In this document: piece after piece, positions 6,852 through 55,502 of the stretch
Layout of the letters: each line of letters opens with the position of its first letter
Numbering within the stretch: the stretch's first letter is position 1
IMG/VR virus record: IMGVR_UViG_3300028832_000128
Span: 1 to 64,000 of that record
DNA from: a virus
Lineage: Duplodnaviria; Caudoviricetes
Reading direction: 5' to 3' (one strand)
DNA length: 64,000 bases
Made by a program: the position numbers and the translations under genes
The notes under the pieces: model-generated
Databases searched by the model: none
What the model was told of the DNA's origin: nothing
The model's input: only the letters and a program-made list of their open reading frames with translations

Positions 6852-8348
6852 TTACTGTCCTAAGCCGTAACCGGTAACACTACCCGAATTATAAATATAA
6901 TTATCCTGCTCGATAGATCTAAACGCTTTACCGTTTTTATATTTAATTTTTAATACTAAGGCATACCTTAAAGCGTCAGGTAAATCGTCATAAACTTTTT
7001 TCGGTCTTTCTTTAATTGCTGTTTGTCTGTTCGGTTCACTCCATACATATTTACCCATACAGCTTATAAGCTGCTTACATTTATCTCCGAAAAAATACAT
7101 ATTCGGTTCACCGTTGGCATTTATATGTAAATATTCGCTTACCGCATTTTTACCTACAACAAAATTCTTTGTGGAAGATCTAAACACAAGGTTCCATTTA
7201 AGGCGTAACCCTTCGGCTCCAAACTCTCTCTGTGCGTTTCTTCCTGATATTCTGTCCGGAGTTGCCGAAATCGAATCAATAAATCTATATTCGGCAGGTC
7301 CGCCTGTCTCCTGCTCTTTTGCTACAATTTTTTCTGCAATTTCTTTTACTGTTCCGCCTGTAACAAGCTCATCGTAAACAAACGCTCTATCTTTTTCATC
7401 AATTGCAACCCACACAACTACACAATCTTTTTGGCTATGATAATCCATCGCGCATATTCTTACCCAATTTTCCGGTATATCAAAACTCTTCATAATATGT
7501 TTGGAGCAAAACTCTTTATATACGAGTCCGGACAAATGTTTAAATTTTCCATAAACCCTTGCTTCTCTTTCTTCTTCGGGAATTTGTGAAATAAAAAATT
7601 CTCTTGCTTCGTCTGTTAAATAAATATTGTCAAAAAGTGAAAATTCAAACACGTCGGTATCTTTATCACCGTGTAACCCTTTTAAATAAATCTCGTCATA
7701 TATCCAAGGTTCATTTAAAGGAGTTGCAGTAATCCATACTTTTCCGTTAAATCTCATCAATCCCCTGATAGTAGCAGTATATTTGTCTTGTGGCGGCGGC
7801 TCATCAAAATGACATCCGTGTCCTGTCCATCCTTCGTATAAATCGGTTTCCTGCTCATAACTCATTAACTCGATTGTAGAGCCGTTTTTAAAATATATTT
7901 TCTTCCATTGTCCGCCTGAATACTTTGCAGGTCTGCCCTTTAAAGTTTCAGGCGGTATTAACTTTTGATATTTACTTACAATAACTTCCTGTATACCTTT
8001 ATCCAAATCGTTCGCACATACTCTTAATTTGTATGGCGGTCTGCACTTCATTTTTTCAATTGTATTATCAAGTCCTAATGCAATTCTTATATCTTCAGCA
8101 CAACCGCACTCGGTTTTACCTGTTTGGTTACCACCTAAAGCAAGTCTTATCTTTTTAAAACTGTTATGAAATTTCTGCTGATACGGTTGCGGACGGTAAT
8201 AACATATTCCGTAATTCTTTTCTCTGTCTTCCAACTCGTATTTATAATTAAGTAACGCATTTAATTTATCCATACTCAAACAATTCAAATCGATATTGTT
8301 TGCTTTTATAAACTCGTCAAATCTGATAGCTTCGATATTTTCGAACAT
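6852..8348 (-). CDS. terL: Terminase large subunit
   Basis: Walker A GGNQTGKT, Walker B GCHFDEPP, C-terminal nuclease motifs AMDYH and DDLPDALRY. Confidence 0.9.
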   Translation of the reverse strand: MFENIEAIRFDEFIKANNIDLNCLSMDKLNALLNYKYELEDREKNYGICYYRPQPYQQKFHNSFKKIRLALGGNQTGKTECGCAEDIRIALGLDNTIEKMKCRPPYKLRVCANDLDKGIQEVIVSKYQKLIPPETLKGRPAKYSGGQWKKIYFKNGSTIELMSYEQETDLYEGWTGHGCHFDEPPPQDKYTATIRGLMRFNGKVWITATPLNEPWIYDEIYLKGLHGDKDTDVFEFSLFDNIYLTDEAREFFISQIPEEEREARVYGKFKHLSGLVYKEFCSKHIMKSFDIPENWVRICAMDYHSQKDCVVVWVAIDEKDRAFVYDELVTGGTVKEIAEKIVAKEQETGGPAEYRFIDSISATPDRISGRNAQREFGAEGLRLKWNLVFRSSTKNFVVGKNAVSEYLHINANGEPNMYFFGDKCKQLISCMGKYVWSEPNRQTAIKERPKKVYDDLPDALRYALVLKIKYKNGKAFRSIEQDNYIYNSGSVTGYGLGQ

Positions 8349-8800
8349 TAAGCCCCTATTTTTGGTATACTTGTTGAAAAAGTTACTGCTTCAACTTCTT
8401 CAAGTGTTTTAGCTGCTTCTAAACTGTTTATTGCTACTCTCCAATTTTCTCTTGCCTGTGCAAGCGTTGCATACTGCTGTTGACTTATTACACCTTCTCC
8501 ATACTTAATTGCTTCATAATCTGTTTTGGCAAGCAGCTGTTGTAACATAACAATTTTTTCCGCTTTCTTTTGGTTTACTTCTGCGGCAATATATTTGTTC
8601 CAATACCAATCAAACTGAGATACAATTTGTTCTTTTGTAACCTCTTTAATAGCAAAACTTATAACATCGGCTTCATATATTTTTTGCCCGCTTTCATCTT
8701 TGGTTTCTTTTACGTTGTTATACATTGTTACATAATCCCAGCCACCTGTTTTAACAACGCTTACATTACCTTGTGGTAAATCTGTTATTTTTGTTTTCAT
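8348..8800 (-). CDS. Tail-fibre assembly chaperone-like protein, ATGA-coupled to RT
   Basis: C-terminal LAKTDY...RENWRVAIN motif resembles tail-fibre chaperones; homolog 45294..45770. Confidence 0.5.
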   Translation of the reverse strand: MKTKITDLPQGNVSVVKTGGWDYVTMYNNVKETKDESGQKIYEADVISFAIKEVTKEQIVSQFDWYWNKYIAAEVNQKKAEKIVMLQQLLAKTDYEAIKYGEGVISQQQYATLAQARENWRVAINSLEAAKTLEEVEAVTFSTSIPKIGA

Positions 8801-9822
8801 CTACACAACCCCCTTAATTGTTCTATGTTTATTAAATTGTAAATTTTGCAACCTAAATTAAAACTGTCAAACCATTTTAAATTACCAAGTCTACAACTAA
8901 GCCTTACAGCCCAATATTTACATGGTTTTTTAATATAGTTTTTCAAGGTTCTGTATAATCCGTATAAGTTTCTTTTTCTAAGTAATACATAACCATAGAA
9001 AAATCTATAACCAAGCATATCAATACCACGCACGGCAACCCGAAATATTTGCCAATTTCCTTTAAGCGTCAATCCAATTTTTGCAAGTATGGTAATAATT
9101 AAATCTACCAATCTGCGTAATTTTCTTTTATTTCCGCTTAAACTGATAAAATCGTCAACGTATCTTAAATAATAATTTATTCCATCGGCTTGTCTTATTG
9201 CAGTGTCCATATCAAGCAACAAAAGATTTTCAAACCATGCACTTGTATAATTTCCAAGCGGTAACCCGCCCATAGGTCCTAAACTGTAAGCTACTGTTGT
9301 AAGTAGTCTTAAATATTTTTTATCTTTTATAAATTGTTTAAAACTCTTAATAACATACTGCGGTCTTATATTTTCGTAACACTTTTTTATGTCGCATTTT
9401 AAGCACCATTTCGTTCCTTTTTTATCCGTATTAAGCCATTTTGTTATTGCCTTATAGCCGTAATGAATACCACGTCCGGGAATAGAAGCAATAGCGTAAG
9501 GATCCAACCTTTTCAATAATCTGTCATAAATCAAATCAATTAACAGATGATGAATACATTGGTCCGGATAAAATACAGGTTTATGCAACAATCTTTTCTT
9601 TTTTGACGGCTGATCTACTGTGTTACAAATAGTATAAGGAGACGGTTTATAACTTTCATTTAAAACCGTTTCTTTTAGTTTTTGAGCATACTTTTCTATA
9701 TTGCTAAGCACTTCTATTACCGGCTTTCTTTTTTTCTTGTGTTTAGCCGCTTTAAGAATGATTGCTTTACAATATTCGTTTGTAATTTTTTCTTCAGTAA
9801 TTAAAAATCCTATTCTTTTCAT
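8797..9822 (-). CDS. DGR reverse transcriptase (A)
   Basis: YVDD catalytic motif, LKCDIKKCY, GLPLGNYTSA, GIDMLGY; 341 aa; adjacent TR/VR pair. Confidence 0.95.
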   Translation of the reverse strand: MKRIGFLITEEKITNEYCKAIILKAAKHKKKRKPVIEVLSNIEKYAQKLKETVLNESYKPSPYTICNTVDQPSKKKRLLHKPVFYPDQCIHHLLIDLIYDRLLKRLDPYAIASIPGRGIHYGYKAITKWLNTDKKGTKWCLKCDIKKCYENIRPQYVIKSFKQFIKDKKYLRLLTTVAYSLGPMGGLPLGNYTSAWFENLLLLDMDTAIRQADGINYYLRYVDDFISLSGNKRKLRRLVDLIITILAKIGLTLKGNWQIFRVAVRGIDMLGYRFFYGYVLLRKRNLYGLYRTLKNYIKKPCKYWAVRLSCRLGNLKWFDSFNLGCKIYNLINIEQLRGLCR

Positions 9823-9970
9823 AGTGTTTTTTATCTTATTAGAGTGTTCGAATTATTTGCATTTTTAAAAACTACAAGCAACCTACTAACCCTATCCCTT
9901 GTTGCACTATTTTTGGCAAGTGCCACGGATTACATAAACAATCAAAACTGCTTTTTAAATTTAAGATATT

Positions 9971-10071
9971 AAACGCAACGCCCGCCATTATTCTGGTTAG
10001 TATTAGAAACGGTGTTGTTCAAATTCAAGTAGAACCCGCCCGCATTCGCCCCGTTGTTGCAGGTGCCGCCT
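9971..10071 (-). repeat. DGR template repeat TR-A
   Basis: 101-bp match to 10211..10311 with 13 mismatches, all at TR adenines; ten AAY codons in the VR frame. Confidence 0.97.
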
Positions 10072-10135
10072 ATTTTATGTAACCCTTCTTTTTTTACTTC
10101 TATTTAAAGAACAAACTGCTTTTATTTTTTTATCT

Positions 10136-10161
10136 TTAAGGGAAAAGGTTTTTTCCCTTAA
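10136..10161 (-). promoter_or_regulatory. Hairpin downstream of VR-A (candidate DGR target-recognition hairpin)
   Basis: ttaagggaaaa / ttttcccttaa 11-bp stem; same stem at 47135..47173. Confidence 0.65.
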
Positions 10162-10199
10162 CAACCCTTTTCTACGGTCTTTCCGCTACGCTTCAAGCC

Positions 10200-12230
10200 C
10201 TAAGGGATAAAAACGCAACGCCCGCCATAAGACTGGTTAGCAGTAGAAACGGTGCCGTTCAAAGCCAAGCAGAACCCGCCCGCATACGCCCCGAGGTTGC
10301 AGGTGCCGCCTGAAAACGCTCGATATACGGTATTGTTGGCGTGAGCATAATATTGATTATCGTTCGTTTTTCCGTTGCTGCTACCGTTCTTAAACAAGAA
10401 CATATCTTTACCTAAAAGTCTTGTAGCTTCGAATCTTCCGTTTGTTATCGTTCCGCCTGCATTTGTCGTTACCTCTATCCAATTGGCTTCTATAGACGAT
10501 TTTGTATAGCTTACGGTTCCGTCAGGATCAGGATTAAAATAAATATGTTCGGTTGTTCCGTCTCCTATTCCTGCTAAGCTGCCGACCATCTGTCCGGCAT
10601 TACCGATAAAATTATCAAGCCCAAAAGTTTTGTTAGGCATTTTACTTGCGTTATAATCACCGTTACCGGTATTTTCTCCGTCAAGTCCAAGCACGTTATC
10701 ACTACCGCCGGTAAGTTCCATACCTAAACACAATACAGTAGTATTTGCTGTTGTGCTTACGGTTCCCTCGATATAAACCTTTTTACAAGCTGTATCTGTT
10801 CCGCTTATACTTACAGTAACATCTTCAACCGATATAATCCTATACCAAGTTGTCGCACTTGCTGTTCCTACGCCTATGCACTGTTTATTTACAGGCACTG
10901 TATTTATTTGACTACTTGCGTTCCAATGTGTAGCCGTAAGTATTACATAATCGACGTTTGTTTCGTCCGTTACTGCTTTTGCGTCGCCTTTATATCCGGT
11001 AGTGTTGCCGTTACCTAAAGTAGCTTGCCAATCTAAATTGGCGTATTTAACAAGCCCTAAATACTGAATACTTGTTTGTTCTTTTATACCGAATAAACGT
11101 AATCCTTTTTTTCTCGGTAACGCTTCAAATTGTGCAATAGTTCTGCTGCATATAGGTGGTCTGCCTGTTGTGATTGTAAACGGAGTATTGTTTGTGGTCT
11201 GCATATCTTCACCGTTCCAATAATAATTGGTTCCGTTAAAGTTATACACACTATCAAAATCAGGTTCTACACCTTCATCCGTAGTATTATCACTTGTAGC
11301 CGTATAAATTAAACCGTTATAATACCACTTATCACCTTCGGTATAAGTTGCAGGTTGCTCTTCAAAAGCCACTAATTTAATTCTAAACGGCTCACCTATA
11401 GAATATTTTGATACTCCAATCCATTCATGTAACACGCCGTTTCTGTCGTGCATAGGTGATACTTTGTAACCGTCTTTAGCTTCTGCCGACAATATTACCA
11501 TTGTATTACCGTCATCATCGATTTCAAGCTTATACCAAAAGATATGAAACATTCTAAAACTGTAAAAACCGGGCAACCCGAAATGTGTCTCGTATTCATA
11601 GGTTCCTTCAACAGCAAACTGTTCGGCTTTACCTGTTTCGGCGTTATAGGTAACCAAAATATCATATCCTTCAAAAATTTCATGACCTTTAAAATCGTCG
11701 GTGCCTGCTGCAACATCTGTGCTTTTGGAAAAATTTAAGCTCGCCGCTCCCAAAATTCTTGTTCCTGCAGAGCTTGAAAGATTAAAACTTACTCCAAGTT
11801 CTTCATGACTTTTAACCGAATGGTTATACACGAACGCCGTTGTTGCTACTTTGTCGGATATATCGTCGTTATGTTGTGTAATTGCCTCTGTTATACCTTC
11901 AAATCGCTTATTGCCCGTTATTACCTCGGTTCCTGTTATATGCACAATATTATCTTCAGGTTTTGTTTGTAACGACGAACCATCCCAATAGTAATATACT
12001 CCGTCATACAAATAAGCTGTATTGTAGCTCGGATCTACTCCGCTGTCTTTTGTTGTTGTTGTAAGTGCGGTATAAATTTTTCCGTCATAAAACCATTTGC
12101 TACCTCTTACATAGGGCGTTGACGGCTGGCTTCCTATAGCAATTAAAGTTACAACTCCTGCACGTCCACCACCGCCGCTTGCTCCTACGGCTGCCCTTCC
12201 TGTATTAAATACTCCATCTGAATAACCCAT
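10200..12230 (-). CDS. DGR target protein A: putative receptor-binding/tail-fibre protein with C-terminal CLec-like VR
   Basis: VATTAFV tail-fibre motif; C-terminus GGTCNLGAYAGGFCLAL...SYGGRCV encoded by the VR. Confidence 0.9.
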   Translation of the reverse strand: MGYSDGVFNTGRAAVGASGGGGRAGVVTLIAIGSQPSTPYVRGSKWFYDGKIYTALTTTTKDSGVDPSYNTAYLYDGVYYYWDGSSLQTKPEDNIVHITGTEVITGNKRFEGITEAITQHNDDISDKVATTAFVYNHSVKSHEELGVSFNLSSSAGTRILGAASLNFSKSTDVAAGTDDFKGHEIFEGYDILVTYNAETGKAEQFAVEGTYEYETHFGLPGFYSFRMFHIFWYKLEIDDDGNTMVILSAEAKDGYKVSPMHDRNGVLHEWIGVSKYSIGEPFRIKLVAFEEQPATYTEGDKWYYNGLIYTATSDNTTDEGVEPDFDSVYNFNGTNYYWNGEDMQTTNNTPFTITTGRPPICSRTIAQFEALPRKKGLRLFGIKEQTSIQYLGLVKYANLDWQATLGNGNTTGYKGDAKAVTDETNVDYVILTATHWNASSQINTVPVNKQCIGVGTASATTWYRIISVEDVTVSISGTDTACKKVYIEGTVSTTANTTVLCLGMELTGGSDNVLGLDGENTGNGDYNASKMPNKTFGLDNFIGNAGQMVGSLAGIGDGTTEHIYFNPDPDGTVSYTKSSIEANWIEVTTNAGGTITNGRFEATRLLGKDMFLFKNGSSNGKTNDNQYYAHANNTVYRAFSGGTCNLGAYAGGFCLALNGTVSTANQSYGGRCVFIP
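10211..10311 (-). repeat. DGR variable repeat VR-A
   Basis: Adenine-specific divergence from TR-A; last ~34 codons of the target. Confidence 0.97.
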
Positions 12231-45294: not shown

Positions 45295-45770
45295 TATGCT
45301 CCTATTTTCGGAATACTTGTTGAAAATTCTACGGCTTCAATTTGTTCAATTGTTGTGCATTGTTCCAAAGCATTTATTGCGGTTCTCCATGCGGCTCTTG
45401 CCTGTGCAAGTGCTGCATACTGCTCTTGGCTTATTACGCCCTCGCCATACTTAATTGCTTCATAATCGGTCGCCTCAAGCAACTTTTTTAATCTGTTTAT
45501 TTTTAATTCTTTGTTTGCAATTACATCGGCTTCAATTGCCTTGTTCCAATAATAATCAAAATGAGCAACAATACTCTCTTTTGTTATATTTGCAACTTTC
45601 GGATATATCAATCTTACTGCGTCAACTTCATATACGGTTTTATTTTGTCCGTTTTCGGTTTCAACGGTTTTTTCAACCGCATTTTTAAACAACAAAACTT
45701 CCGTAAATCTATCTGTTTGTCTAACATCAACATTATCTTGTGGCACTACATCAACCGTTATTTTGCTCAT
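45294..45770 (-). CDS. Tail-fibre assembly chaperone-like protein
   Basis: LEATDY...RAAWRTAIN; ATGA-coupled to RT. Confidence 0.5.
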   Translation of the reverse strand: MSKITVDVVPQDNVDVRQTDRFTEVLLFKNAVEKTVETENGQNKTVYEVDAVRLIYPKVANITKESIVAHFDYYWNKAIEADVIANKELKINRLKKLLEATDYEAIKYGEGVISQEQYAALAQARAAWRTAINALEQCTTIEQIEAVEFSTSIPKIGA

Positions 45771-46783
45771 TTACACAACCCCCTTAATTGACTATAATTT
45801 ATTTTTGAATTTATGTAATTTTCCAACTTAAAACTGCTAAACCATTTTAATCCGCCAAGTCTGCAACTTAATCTTGTAGCCCAATATTTACACGGTTTTT
45901 TAACATAATGTTTTAATGTTCTGTATAATCCGTATAAATTTCTTTTTCTAAGTAAAACATAATTATAAAAGAACCTGTAACCGAGCATATCAATCCCTCT
46001 TACTTTGGTTCTGAAAATTTGCCAATTTTGTTTAAGTTTTAATTCTGCTTTTTGTAATATTTCCACTATGGTAGGTAATAATCTGCGTAATTTTCTTTTA
46101 TTGCTTGAAAGCACAATAAAATCGTCAACGTATCTCAAATAATAATTAATTCCGTCCGATTGTCTTATTGTTGTATCTAATTTTAATAACAAAAGATTCT
46201 CAAACCATGCACTTGTGTAATTTCCAAGCGGTAAACTTTTCATACTAAATGCTACTGTTTGTAACAGTTTTAAATATTTTTTATCTTTTATAAAACGTTT
46301 AAAGCACTCTACAACATACTGCGGTTTTATATTGTCGTAACATTTTTTAATATCACATTTAAGGCACCACTTCGTTCCTTTTTTGTCGGTATTAAGCCAT
46401 CTTGTAATTGCTTTGTAACCGTAATGAATACCACGCCCCGGAATTGAAGCAATAGCGTATGGATCCAATCTTTTCAACAATCTGTCATACACCAAATCAA
46501 TTAACAGATGGTGTATACACTGGTCCGGATAAAATACAGGTTTGTGTAATACTCTACGCTTGCCTGACGGTTGGTCGACTATATTACATACGGTATAAGG
46601 CGACGGTTTATATGTTTGTGTTAAAACCATCTCTTTTAATTCTTCCGCATAAAAATCAATATTGTTTAAAACTTTTTTAACACTGTTTCTTTTAGTTTTA
46701 AACTTTGCGGCTTTTAAAATTATCCGTTTACAATACTCTGTTGTAATTTTCTCGTTGGTAATCAAATTTCCAACTCTTTTCAT
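45767..46783 (-). CDS. DGR reverse transcriptase (B)
   Basis: YVDD, LPLGNYTSA, GIDMLGY; 338 aa. Confidence 0.95.
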   Translation of the reverse strand: MKRVGNLITNEKITTEYCKRIILKAAKFKTKRNSVKKVLNNIDFYAEELKEMVLTQTYKPSPYTVCNIVDQPSGKRRVLHKPVFYPDQCIHHLLIDLVYDRLLKRLDPYAIASIPGRGIHYGYKAITRWLNTDKKGTKWCLKCDIKKCYDNIKPQYVVECFKRFIKDKKYLKLLQTVAFSMKSLPLGNYTSAWFENLLLLKLDTTIRQSDGINYYLRYVDDFIVLSSNKRKLRRLLPTIVEILQKAELKLKQNWQIFRTKVRGIDMLGYRFFYNYVLLRKRNLYGLYRTLKHYVKKPCKYWATRLSCRLGGLKWFSSFKLENYINSKINYSQLRGLCK

Positions 46784-46963
46784 TTCGTTTTATTTCCTGT
46801 TTTTTTATCTTTTTTTACACTTCTTATAGTGTTTATATCTTTCAGAGTTTTCTATTCGTTAAAAACGAAATACTAACCCTGCCTTTTGTTGTCTTATTTT
46901 CACCAAGTGGTGCGGATTATACAAACAATAGAAAATATTTTTACTCCAAGTTTTTAAGATATT

Positions 46964-47064
46964 AACTCAGCGGGCACCGTTATTCCGCCTCGCATTGTCA
47001 AGCCCGTTGTTCAAATTCCAGTAGAAAGCCCCGTAATTCGCCCCGTTGTTGCAATTGCCGCCAT
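46964..47064 (-). repeat. DGR template repeat TR-B
   Basis: 101-bp match to 47202..47302; 15 mismatches at TR adenines, 1 at a C. Confidence 0.97.
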
Positions 47065-47134
47065 TTTGTATAACCCGTAGGGATTAATCCCTGTTTTACC
47101 TCTATTTAAAGAACAAGTTTTTATTTCTTTAGCT

Positions 47135-47173
47135 TTAAGGGAAAAGGCGGCACTGCGTGCCTTTTTCCCTTAA
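47135..47173 (-). promoter_or_regulatory. Hairpin downstream of VR-B
   Basis: Same 11-bp outer stem as in A plus inner ggcac-gca-gtgcc hairpin. Confidence 0.65.
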
Positions 47174-47192
47174 CAACCCTTTTCTAAAAGGC

Positions 47193-49034
47193 TCACTGTA
47201 AAACACAGCGGGCACCGTAATACCGCCTCGCATAGTCAAGCCCGTCGACCAAATGCCAAGAGAAAGCCCCGCAAAGCGCCCCGTAGCTGCAATAGCCGCC
47301 ATACCAAGCCGACTTTTGTCCTGCTGACGCTGTTAAATAACTGTAGTCGTCGGTTAAATATTTTACGTTTTGCACTCTTGTAACACCGGTATTCGATGGC
47401 AAGAAAGCAAATAAAGCAAGGCTGCTTAAAGCTACAAACTTTTTATCCCATCCCTCGCTTGTTCCTATATTTCCTACAGCTGTCCAATTTTTATTGTTTG
47501 CCGTATTTGTGTAAGCGTAATCGCTGTTATTTGGTTTTGGATTAACATATACCGTAGCCACTCCGTCAGCAACAATGTTTTCCATACCGCCCACGGCTTT
47601 GTTTTCGTTAGCATACCACTCACATATACCCATAACTTTCATAGGTCTTCTTGTTGTTGTGGTTATTGCTCCGTTTGCCGTATAATATCCGTCGTCGCCG
47701 AGTATTGCGTCTGCTCCGCCGGAAGCCCTTAATCCTAAATATATTGTTTGGTTTACCGTAGTAGTAATTTCGGTATCGATATTTATTTTTTTACAAGCTG
47801 TTTCAACGCCGTCTATTGTTTCGGTAACATCTTCTACACTCGAAATTTTATATCCTGTTGACGACGTATTCACATAAACAATATTATTTGTAATATCTTG
47901 TTCCAAACTTGCAACCCAATTTGTAGCCAAAATTATTATGCTGTTTTCATTACTCTGAGCAACGGCAACTTTTGTTTCTTTCCATCCCTCGCTTATACCT
48001 TGTCCTACGGAATATTGCCAATTCAAACTTGCATATTTAACTATACCAAGTAATTGTATGGCGGTTATTTCGTTTAGGTTCATAAGTCTTTGCGTTTTTG
48101 CTCTGAGCAACGCCTCAAACTGTTGGTTTGTTTTATAAGTTAAAGGAATACAATCTTTTCTTACGCAACAACCATTGTCGTCTGCTCCCTCGGGATAACA
48201 TACCTCATACTTGCCGTAATAGATATATTCTTTTAAATTTCCGTCGTCGTCTTTAAACCCCGGAGCTACTTCATAACCTTGCTCAGGCGAATCACTAAGC
48301 CATATTTCAATACCGTCGTCGGTAATTTGGCTTTTGTGCCAAAATATTCTTTTAGCAACAAATCTATCCCATCCCTCGCTATTTTTGTATTGTTCAAACT
48401 CATAGGTTCCCTCTACATACATTGTTCTTACTTGTGTCTGAGGATTATAATTAACAATACAATCAAATTTGCTGTAAATAGGATGATCTTTAAAATCGTC
48501 TGTTCCTGCTTCTGTATCGGATGAAGGGCTAAAATCCATACTTGTAGCACCGCCAAGTCTTGTGATAGTTCCATCGTATTTAATCAATACACCCAACTTT
48601 GTAGCACTTTTATATACTTGTTCTATATGATTAAACACAAAAGCCGTCGTTGCTACTTTTCTGCTAATATCGTCCATCGGCTGAGTTACCGCTTTTAATT
48701 CTCCTGAAAAATCTTTGTTACCTGTTATCTCTTCGGTGCCTGTAATATGCACAAGGTTTGTTTCAGGTTGTCCTTGTAATTCTTCGCCGTTCCAATAATA
48801 GTAAGTTCCGTTATACAAGTATGCTATTCTGCTGTCAGGATCAACTCCGCTGTCTTTTGTTGTTGTTGTAAGTGCAGTATATATTTTATCGTTATAAAAC
48901 CATTTGCTGCCTCTTACATACGGTGTTGACGGTTCTTCGCCCATTGCAATTAAAGCAACAACTCCTACGTTTCCGCCGTTATTGCCGCCTACTCTTGTTC
49001 TTCCTGTATTTCTTACTCCGTCTTCATAACCCAT
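47193..49034 (-). CDS. DGR target protein B (receptor-binding, CLec-like VR)
   Basis: N-terminus shared with target A; ends GGYCSYGALCGAFSW...RYYGARCVLQ; start at ATG after gaggtg. Confidence 0.9.
   Translation of the reverse strand: MGYEDGVRNTGRTRVGGNNGGNVGVVALIAMGEEPSTPYVRGSKWFYNDKIYTALTTTTKDSGVDPDSRIAYLYNGTYYYWNGEELQGQPETNLVHITGTEEITGNKDFSGELKAVTQPMDDISRKVATTAFVFNHIEQVYKSATKLGVLIKYDGTITRLGGATSMDFSPSSDTEAGTDDFKDHPIYSKFDCIVNYNPQTQVRTMYVEGTYEFEQYKNSEGWDRFVAKRIFWHKSQITDDGIEIWLSDSPEQGYEVAPGFKDDDGNLKEYIYYGKYEVCYPEGADDNGCCVRKDCIPLTYKTNQQFEALLRAKTQRLMNLNEITAIQLLGIVKYASLNWQYSVGQGISEGWKETKVAVAQSNENSIIILATNWVASLEQDITNNIVYVNTSSTGYKISSVEDVTETIDGVETACKKINIDTEITTTVNQTIYLGLRASGGADAILGDDGYYTANGAITTTTRRPMKVMGICEWYANENKAVGGMENIVADGVATVYVNPKPNNSDYAYTNTANNKNWTAVGNIGTSEGWDKKFVALSSLALFAFLPSNTGVTRVQNVKYLTDDYSYLTASAGQKSAWYGGYCSYGALCGAFSWHLVDGLDYARRYYGARCVLQ
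47202..47302 (-). repeat. DGR variable repeat VR-B
   Basis: Adenine-biased divergence from TR-B. Confidence 0.97.
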
Positions 49035-49050
49035 TGTAACCACCTCTTTT

Positions 49051-55381: not shown

Positions 55382-55425
55382 TTTGTTTCTGTCTCCTTTT
55401 TTTAAAAAACTTTTTCTATGTTTTT

Positions 55426-55501
55426 CGCTTTCTGTAGGATTCGAACCTACACTCCCAAATACACCGGTTCTTTGGTGTTCTTCCGTCTAAACTAAGAAAG
55501 C
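55426..55501 (-). tRNA. tRNA-like element with non-canonical anticodon arm (B only)
   Basis: GCTTTCT/AGAAAGC acceptor, GTAGG-TTCGAAT-CCTAC T arm, D arm with GG; CCAAA/TTTGG stem encloses 11 nt. Confidence 0.55.
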
Positions 55502-55502
55502 A

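Follow-up and report, generated by a model that had tools for sequence, protein, structure and literature searches.

The 64,000-nt stretch of DNA analysed here, referred to as the window, covers positions 1 to 64,000 of the IMG/VR record IMGVR_UViG_3300028832_000128, a virus of the Caudoviricetes, and carries on its minus strand a cassette with the organization of a diversity-generating retroelement (DGR), in which a target gene ending in a variable region (VR) is followed by a template repeat (TR) and by a reverse transcriptase (RT) gene. The record in full, a virus contig of 75,585 bp, consists of two diverged tandem units of ~37 kb (units A and B) and the start of a third, and each full unit has its own DGR. 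The cassette of unit A presents the following features, whose positions are those within the window:

8348..8800, minus strand: gene for an acidic 150-aa protein (pI 5.3), whose start overlaps the RT stop and whose stop overlaps the terL start
8797..9822, minus strand: DGR RT gene, 341 aa (RVT_1, 2e-14; phrog_1423, 2e-65; YVDD at residue 221; LGNYTSA at residue 189)
9824..9925, minus strand: structured RNA element of the Rfam RT-18/RT-17 type, found by Rfam models and covariation
9971..10071, minus strand: TR, non-coding, with 26 adenines, found by repeat search and alignment
10136..10161, minus strand: hairpin with an 11-bp stem and an AACC loop, read from the sequence
10211..10311, minus strand: VR, coding for residues ~641-673 of the target and ending 3 codons before its stop
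10200..12230, minus strand: DGR target gene, an open reading frame (ORF) of 676 aa (phrog_5302, tail protein, 1.6e-7)

On the minus strand, the order is thus target/VR, hairpin, TR, a 148-nt spacer that separates the TR from the RT start, and RT, as had been described in an initial annotation of the window. No ORF was found in the 139 nt separating VR from TR, and a blastn search with the cassette against a phage collection returned no match.

The 101-nt direct repeat formed by TR and VR was the largest repeat family between positions 8000 and 13000. The minus-strand alignment of both copies revealed 13 mismatches in 101 positions, and all 13 corresponded to an A in TR and to C, G or T in VR, a distribution with a hypergeometric probability of 1.3e-9 given 26 A among the 101 nt of TR. 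The 33 complete TR codons in the target frame hold 25 A spread over 15 codons (10 AAY, 3 ACY, TAC, and CAG), and changes at A yield no stop in any of them. The mismatch pattern, the count of 25 adenines and the ten AAY codons free of stop risk claimed in the initial annotation were therefore all recovered. Only one VR corresponded to this TR, since the 75.6-kb record was found to contain no second one. At the VR 3′ end, a GC-rich stretch (GGCGGGCGTTGCGTTT) is common to TR and VR, after which the sequences diverge. The DGR of unit B, also complete (45767-49043; TR 46964-47064, VR 47202-47302), presented 16 TR/VR mismatches, 15 of them at A and one C-to-T. The TR sequences of the two units are unrelated, their RTs are 78% identical, their targets are 39% identical, and the unit B hairpin is longer. 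Directly upstream of the TR, an AT-rich block (TTGTTCTTTAAATAGARGTAAAA; 10072-10135 and 47065-47140) was kept in both units despite the unrelated TRs, and may be a promoter or a 5′ element of the DGR RNA.

The variation of the VR in nature was judged from database proteins and assembled contigs. The database cluster of targets with at least 90% identity had 21 members, one of them on a 148-kb contig, and variation was tabulated for the 15 listed, among which 13 distinct VR peptides were observed. All 15 A-containing VR codons varied, with 3-10 residues each, whereas 15 of the 18 A-free codons were invariant, and the mean pairwise difference was 46.7% in the VR versus 2.9% in residues 101-642. 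The hypervariability of A-codons next to mostly fixed A-free codons in proteins otherwise nearly identical indicates that the element has been active in nature. Moreover, two independent contigs of this phage bear VRs that differ from that of the window: L094, with an RT 100% identical and a TR identical to those of the window, and L001, which stops at the target stop codon, short of the TR. Further VR variants were found in contigs of two other rumen runs (X4 and X9). Both L001 and L094 break at the VR; the L094 end is a TR/VR chimera, and the 365-kb metagenome contig that begins at this RT opens with TR-upstream sequence joined to the 3′ part of a VR. Such contig ends are points where the assembly broke on account of the TR/VR repeat or of heterogeneity in the VR.

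A PDB search revealed that the closest solved structure to the RT is the Bordetella bRT (8ub7, E 1.6e-16), with group II intron-type, retron-type, and Drt3a RTs ranking behind it, and the NCBIfam group II, retron, and DRT models scored far under their cut-offs against this protein. The catalytic YxDD motif is intact (YVDD). A bRT-like RT, differences restricted to adenines and relatives hypervariable at A-codons together uphold the DGR reading of the initial annotation.

The spacer between TR and RT would form a structured RNA. In unit A it scored 39.1 bits against Rfam RT-18 (RF03021; E 2e-5), just under the gathering score of 41.3, and RT-17 (RF03020) also matched it; the unit B spacer, with 45.4 and 44.1 bits, was over both RT-18/RT-17 gathering scores. 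The alignment of 18 related spacers revealed compensatory changes at 7 of the 10 consensus pairs, with covariation in P1, a TGGC-ACTT-GCCA hairpin at 9914-9925, and in P2. In BPP-1, the RT-10 motif occupies the same position between TR and RT, and the authors guessed at a corresponding role of further RT motifs in other DGRs, RT-17 and RT-18 not being assigned to DGRs in the published description (Weinberg et al. 2017, PMC5737381). Judging from sequence and covariation, this guess is borne out for RT-17/18 at this locus.

The hairpin starts 38 nt past the target stop codon, and most relatives have a hairpin of different sequence at the equivalent place. It was considered as an intrinsic terminator and rejected, as no T-run follows it and a terminator scan made no call. 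In BPP-1-type DGRs, a GC-rich IMH at the VR 3′ end has a hairpin or cruciform close behind it that directs homing. The hairpin of the present cassette may have a role in homing, as in BPP-1, or mark an RNA end.

The VR is located in a domain for which a C-type-lectin fold is supported by a family profile and by structure modelling. A profile made from 86 relatives, which covers the C-terminal 170 residues, matched TaqVP (5VF4, E 3e-11) and Mtd (1YU4, E 1.7e-5), the latter match spanning the Mtd VR. Similarly, when the AF2 (AlphaFold2) model of this domain was compared by VIA-align with 48,161 chains, 8 chains reached Z>=2 and all of them had the C-type-lectin fold, the top matches being TaqVP (Z 5.2, root-mean-square deviation 7.0, 141 residues aligned) and the archaeal AvpA (5IOO, Z 3.6). 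The identity to TaqVP, Mtd, and AvpA does not exceed 17%, and they were matched through the family profile and a low-confidence model, not through the single protein. The VR follows the pattern GG..C..GA.AG.F......S......G.RCV. An earlier AF2 model, made from 20 sequences and covering the C-terminal 326 aa, had poor quality in the VR domain (pLDDT <50). The C-type-lectin C-terminus that the initial annotation had named as part of the DGR hallmark was thus recovered by profile and by structural matches.

Taken as a whole, the locus very probably harbors a functional DGR without Avd in a temperate-type phage of the ruminant gut, which diversifies a probable tail fibre or receptor-binding protein and is accompanied by a 150-aa protein that is most likely the assembly partner of this fibre. 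Several observations speak against such an interpretation. Regarding the variable domain, the AF2 model had low confidence (pLDDT 66), Foldseek found no match for it in the PDB, and a phmmer search of the PDB with the single target protein found none either. The hairpin is 49 nt from the VR end instead of adjoining it, and could be an RNA 3′-end or stability element. The RT does not preserve the motif-4 signature [I/L/V]GxxxSQ, as its LGNYTSA keeps L, G, and S and replaces Q by A. Pfam, NCBIfam, and PHROG searches of the neighbouring small ORFs yielded neither Avd nor any other known accessory gene. Finally, in the source run, a single contig spans TR and VR and presented no difference at the contig level.

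The last three observations would also suit a relic, that is, a DGR once active and now inactive in this genome, with the VR diversity of its relatives being inherited. This possibility is considered very remote, as RT, TR, VR frame, and spacer RNA have remained intact and the contig with the 100% identical RT has a different VR. Moreover, relatives only 2.9% divergent elsewhere differ at 47% of the VR residues, at A-codons, a disparity that requires recent and repeated homing. The SQ motif is a frequent signature of DGR RTs, not a requirement. The SA variant is common to the RTs of units A and B, both of which display the adenine pattern, and the motif also varies in other RTs, which present SG at 52-55% RT identity and IGNYTSQ in more distant ones (35-45%).

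Two ORFs of the cassette neighbourhood were considered as Avd candidates and discarded: the 150-aa ORF, which is acidic and has no Avd-family match, and a 126-aa ORF, which has no such match either and carries an N-terminal membrane helix. The absence of Avd places the element among the accessory-less architectures, not in the BPP-1 type, and the DGR that had been called complete by the initial annotation is so in the Avd-less sense only. Accessory-less DGRs have been described as Architecture A, as the avd-less Lineage 3 and, with the acidic protein CH1, as Architecture E; CH1 (160-169 aa, pI 4.7) was found only in avd-less DGRs, in Bacteroides and relatives, and Avd-independent homing was proposed for this class (Wu et al. 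2018, PMC5758913). The cassette of unit A shares with these systems the target-TR-RT order without avd, HRDC or MSL, as well as a small acidic ORF attached to it, as in the case of CH1.

The comparison with the DGR of Bordetella phage BPP-1 (mtd-avd-TR-brt) revealed several common features: a target whose C-type-lectin-fold domain has the VR at its very C-terminus, AAY-rich and adenine-specific TR-to-VR differences, a TR separated from the downstream RT by a structured spacer RNA, a hairpin after the VR, and an RT whose nearest solved relative is that of BPP-1 itself. On the other hand, BPP-1 has avd (~128 aa, basic, a four-helix bundle) between target and TR, where none is found here; its RT motif is IGSLTSQ, the counterpart of LGNYTSA; its spacer RNA is RT-10 instead of the RT-17/18 type; its hairpin is close to the VR instead of 49 nt away; and the acidic 150-aa gene coupled to the RT 3′ end is found only in the present cassette of the two.

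By analogy with BPP-1, the RT would reverse-transcribe an RNA that comprises both TR and structured spacer, inserting random nucleotides wherever the template has an adenine, and the resulting cDNA would take the place of the VR in the 3′ end of the target gene. Such replacement would rewrite 15 codons on the ligand-binding face of the C-type-lectin-fold domain, giving up to ~6e14 peptides and no stops. The target would be located in the virion and would act in receptor recognition.

The 676-aa target presented a modular organization, with the following regions:

Residues ~1-130: N-terminal anchor module, common to non-DGR fibres
Residues ~294-345: second CBM5/12-like repeat, with a weak CBM_5_12 match
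Residues ~414-504: tailspike-like beta domain, found by structural comparison
Residues ~540-676: C-type-lectin-like variable domain, found by profile and model

The match to phrog_5302, annotated as tail protein, covers residues 231-676. The central beta domain was confidently modelled, its closest structural matches being tailspike and tail-tip proteins of phages (best Z 8.6), and the BFVD matches to it include tail fibres. The first ~110 residues are ~65% identical in proteins with a quite different, non-variable C-terminus, and this joining of the N-terminal module to other C-terminal tips indicates the modular build of receptor-binding fibres. Together with the annotated tail or tail-fibre genes that precede the homologous cassettes of isolated phages and with the chaperone-like gene behind the RT, these features make it plausible, from context, that the target is a distal tail fibre or receptor-binding protein. 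It was also considered that the diversified protein could be of another kind, such as a surface or adhesion protein of the lysogen or a capsid decoration. The placement of the gene between capsid/holin-like genes and terL, outside an obvious tail module, the lack of a strong family assignment and the CBM5/12-like repeats would be in keeping with such roles, which are nevertheless judged improbable in view of the tail-protein PHROG, of the tailspike and tail-tip resemblance, of the alternative tips on a common N-terminal module, and of the gene order in isolated phages.

Relatives of target residues ~20-130 were observed in a set of 531-723-aa proteins (P0016-P0030) that end in a conserved, non-variable C-terminus (...DLTAEDIAIATGKGWTVTR), and these are interpreted as alternative fibre tips on the same anchor. 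In addition, the target of unit A has an extra segment of ~60 residues (residues ~294-345; 11196-11351), absent from the unit B target, that repeats the N-terminal 'GxKWYYNGxIYTA...YYWNG' motif (12067-12105 / 11299-11337), as if a carbohydrate-binding-like module had been duplicated within the protein.

The gene placed after the RT was conserved to an extent that deserves separate consideration. Relatives whose RTs are 49-100% identical had homologues of the 150-aa protein directly behind the RT, and an iterated profile picked up 88 of the 117 unique post-RT ORFs over the whole RT clade. In 301 Elusimicrobiota genomes, all strong homologues with upstream DNA present follow an RT, one further strong homologue (L218) being cut by its contig end. 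To judge from these neighbourhoods, the maintenance of an RT-coupled 150-aa gene across the whole RT clade is a new observation. The family leads for this protein, all weak, were Phage_tail_APC, tail fibre assembly, XkdW, and DUF2977, and it probably acts in tail-fibre assembly or as a fibre partner, in which case TR and RT would have the fibre gene on one side and its chaperone on the other. A role as terS, considered in view of the adjoining terL, was rejected, as most relatives have the gene after the RT with no terL nearby. Two scans of viral contigs, made to learn whether the 150-aa gene also comes after non-DGR fibres with the N-terminal module of the target, returned no such fibre.

Alternatively, the 150-aa family might be a DGR cofactor that stands in for Avd, binding the RT and/or the spacer RNA of the RT-17/18 type, and might even correspond to CH1. 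The steady position of the gene next after the RT, often overlapping its stop, across RT identities of 31-100% and with other flanks changing, would be expected of such a cofactor, as would its constant association with RTs in the Elusimicrobiota genomes and the lack of Avd in the cassette. The family is also acidic (pI 4.3-5.4), as is CH1, which it resembles in acidity and in being attached to the cassette; CH1, however, has 160-169 aa and was reported from Bacteroides and relatives, whereas the nearest cellular relatives here are Elusimicrobiaceae and Clostridia metagenome-assembled genomes (MAGs). Against a cofactor role, the same acidity separates the 150-aa protein from Avd, which is basic. 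Furthermore, another Elusimicrobiota genome has a weak homologue placed after a tail-fibre-like gene, in a neighbourhood that lacks an RT, and the family leads all correspond to fibre partners. In Roseburia phage Shimadzu (LR596903.1), a tail fibre and a DGR are likewise followed by a small ORF overlapping the RT stop, orf25, whose 73 aa show homology to the C-terminal half of the 150-aa protein and leave the N-terminal half without a counterpart; in this phage, however, an Avd is annotated in the interval from fibre to TR. The cofactor role is therefore regarded as doubtful, although, if true, it would imply that mutagenic retrohoming has a second route, independent of Avd. The 150-aa family profile gave no match to the ORF that comes after the RT in Bacteroides phage Versailles.

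The assembly partner remains the favoured role for the 150-aa protein, and the cassette as a whole represents a known mechanism, that of a well-preserved Avd-less phage DGR targeting a C-type-lectin domain, with no novelty in the mechanism itself. It largely repeats what large DGR surveys already showed, and adds three modest points: an RT signature with SA in place of SQ, the link of a named Rfam motif to a DGR spacer, and a conserved RT-coupled small gene. As a clean and apparently active example of the Avd-less class, whose mechanism remains unexplained, it also offers a compact test system, composed of a 341-aa RT, a 101-nt TR, a covarying Rfam-type spacer RNA, and a tightly linked small gene, which is accompanied by natural VR libraries from many rumen samples.

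The distribution of this cassette was assessed in ~190 loci with related RTs (30-100% identity) gathered from viral, metagenome, and genome collections. Nearly all of them presented the same layout of VR, 100-330 nt, TR, ~150 nt, and RT, with no room for avd, and more than 100 combined it with adenine-biased TR/VR mismatches. This arrangement is equivalent to Architecture A and to the avd-less lineage of Wu et al. 2018. The placement of the cassette between capsid/holin-like genes and terL, which the initial annotation had found unusual, was indeed verified and is common to a single related locus (L084), the only relative with a 150-aa homologue that also has terL, portal, and capsid in common; nonetheless, it follows the gene order of this phage, as others carry the target-TR-RT-150-aa module elsewhere, before the lysis genes in the case of isolated phages. 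The nearest relatives in species genomes (RT 57%) were three Elusimicrobiaceae MAGs. One of their related cassettes, on an 83-kb Elusimicrobiaceae MAG contig (L162; RT 57%, 150-aa homologue 36%), is flanked by housekeeping genes (NuoF, H+-PPase, TGT, ClpB-like, and MetRS). The cassette is the only part that L162 and unit A have in common, which indicates that it moves as a module between different phages.

The phage itself would have a genome of ~37 kb and be of the temperate type, with integrase and repressor genes present in the record; several relatives assemble as contigs of ~37-38 kb. The runs containing the sequence were bovine and sheep gut or rumen metagenomes. The initial annotation had spoken of a prophage, a label not supported by this virus record, since no host DNA flanks were found in its 75,585 bp. 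The host is possibly a member of the Elusimicrobiaceae, for which, to our knowledge, there are no cultured phages, and the putative fibre would then document targeted tail-fibre hypervariation in phages linked to this family.

Units A and B are 76-98% identical by segment, with an offset of ~36.9-37.4 kb, and the start of the third unit is 94.5% identical to the first 1225 bases of unit A. These tandem units could be a real array or result from the assembler walking a circular genome through strain variants. A tRNA-Pro(CGG) gene (55425-55502) lies inside an insertion of ~430 bp found in unit B only.

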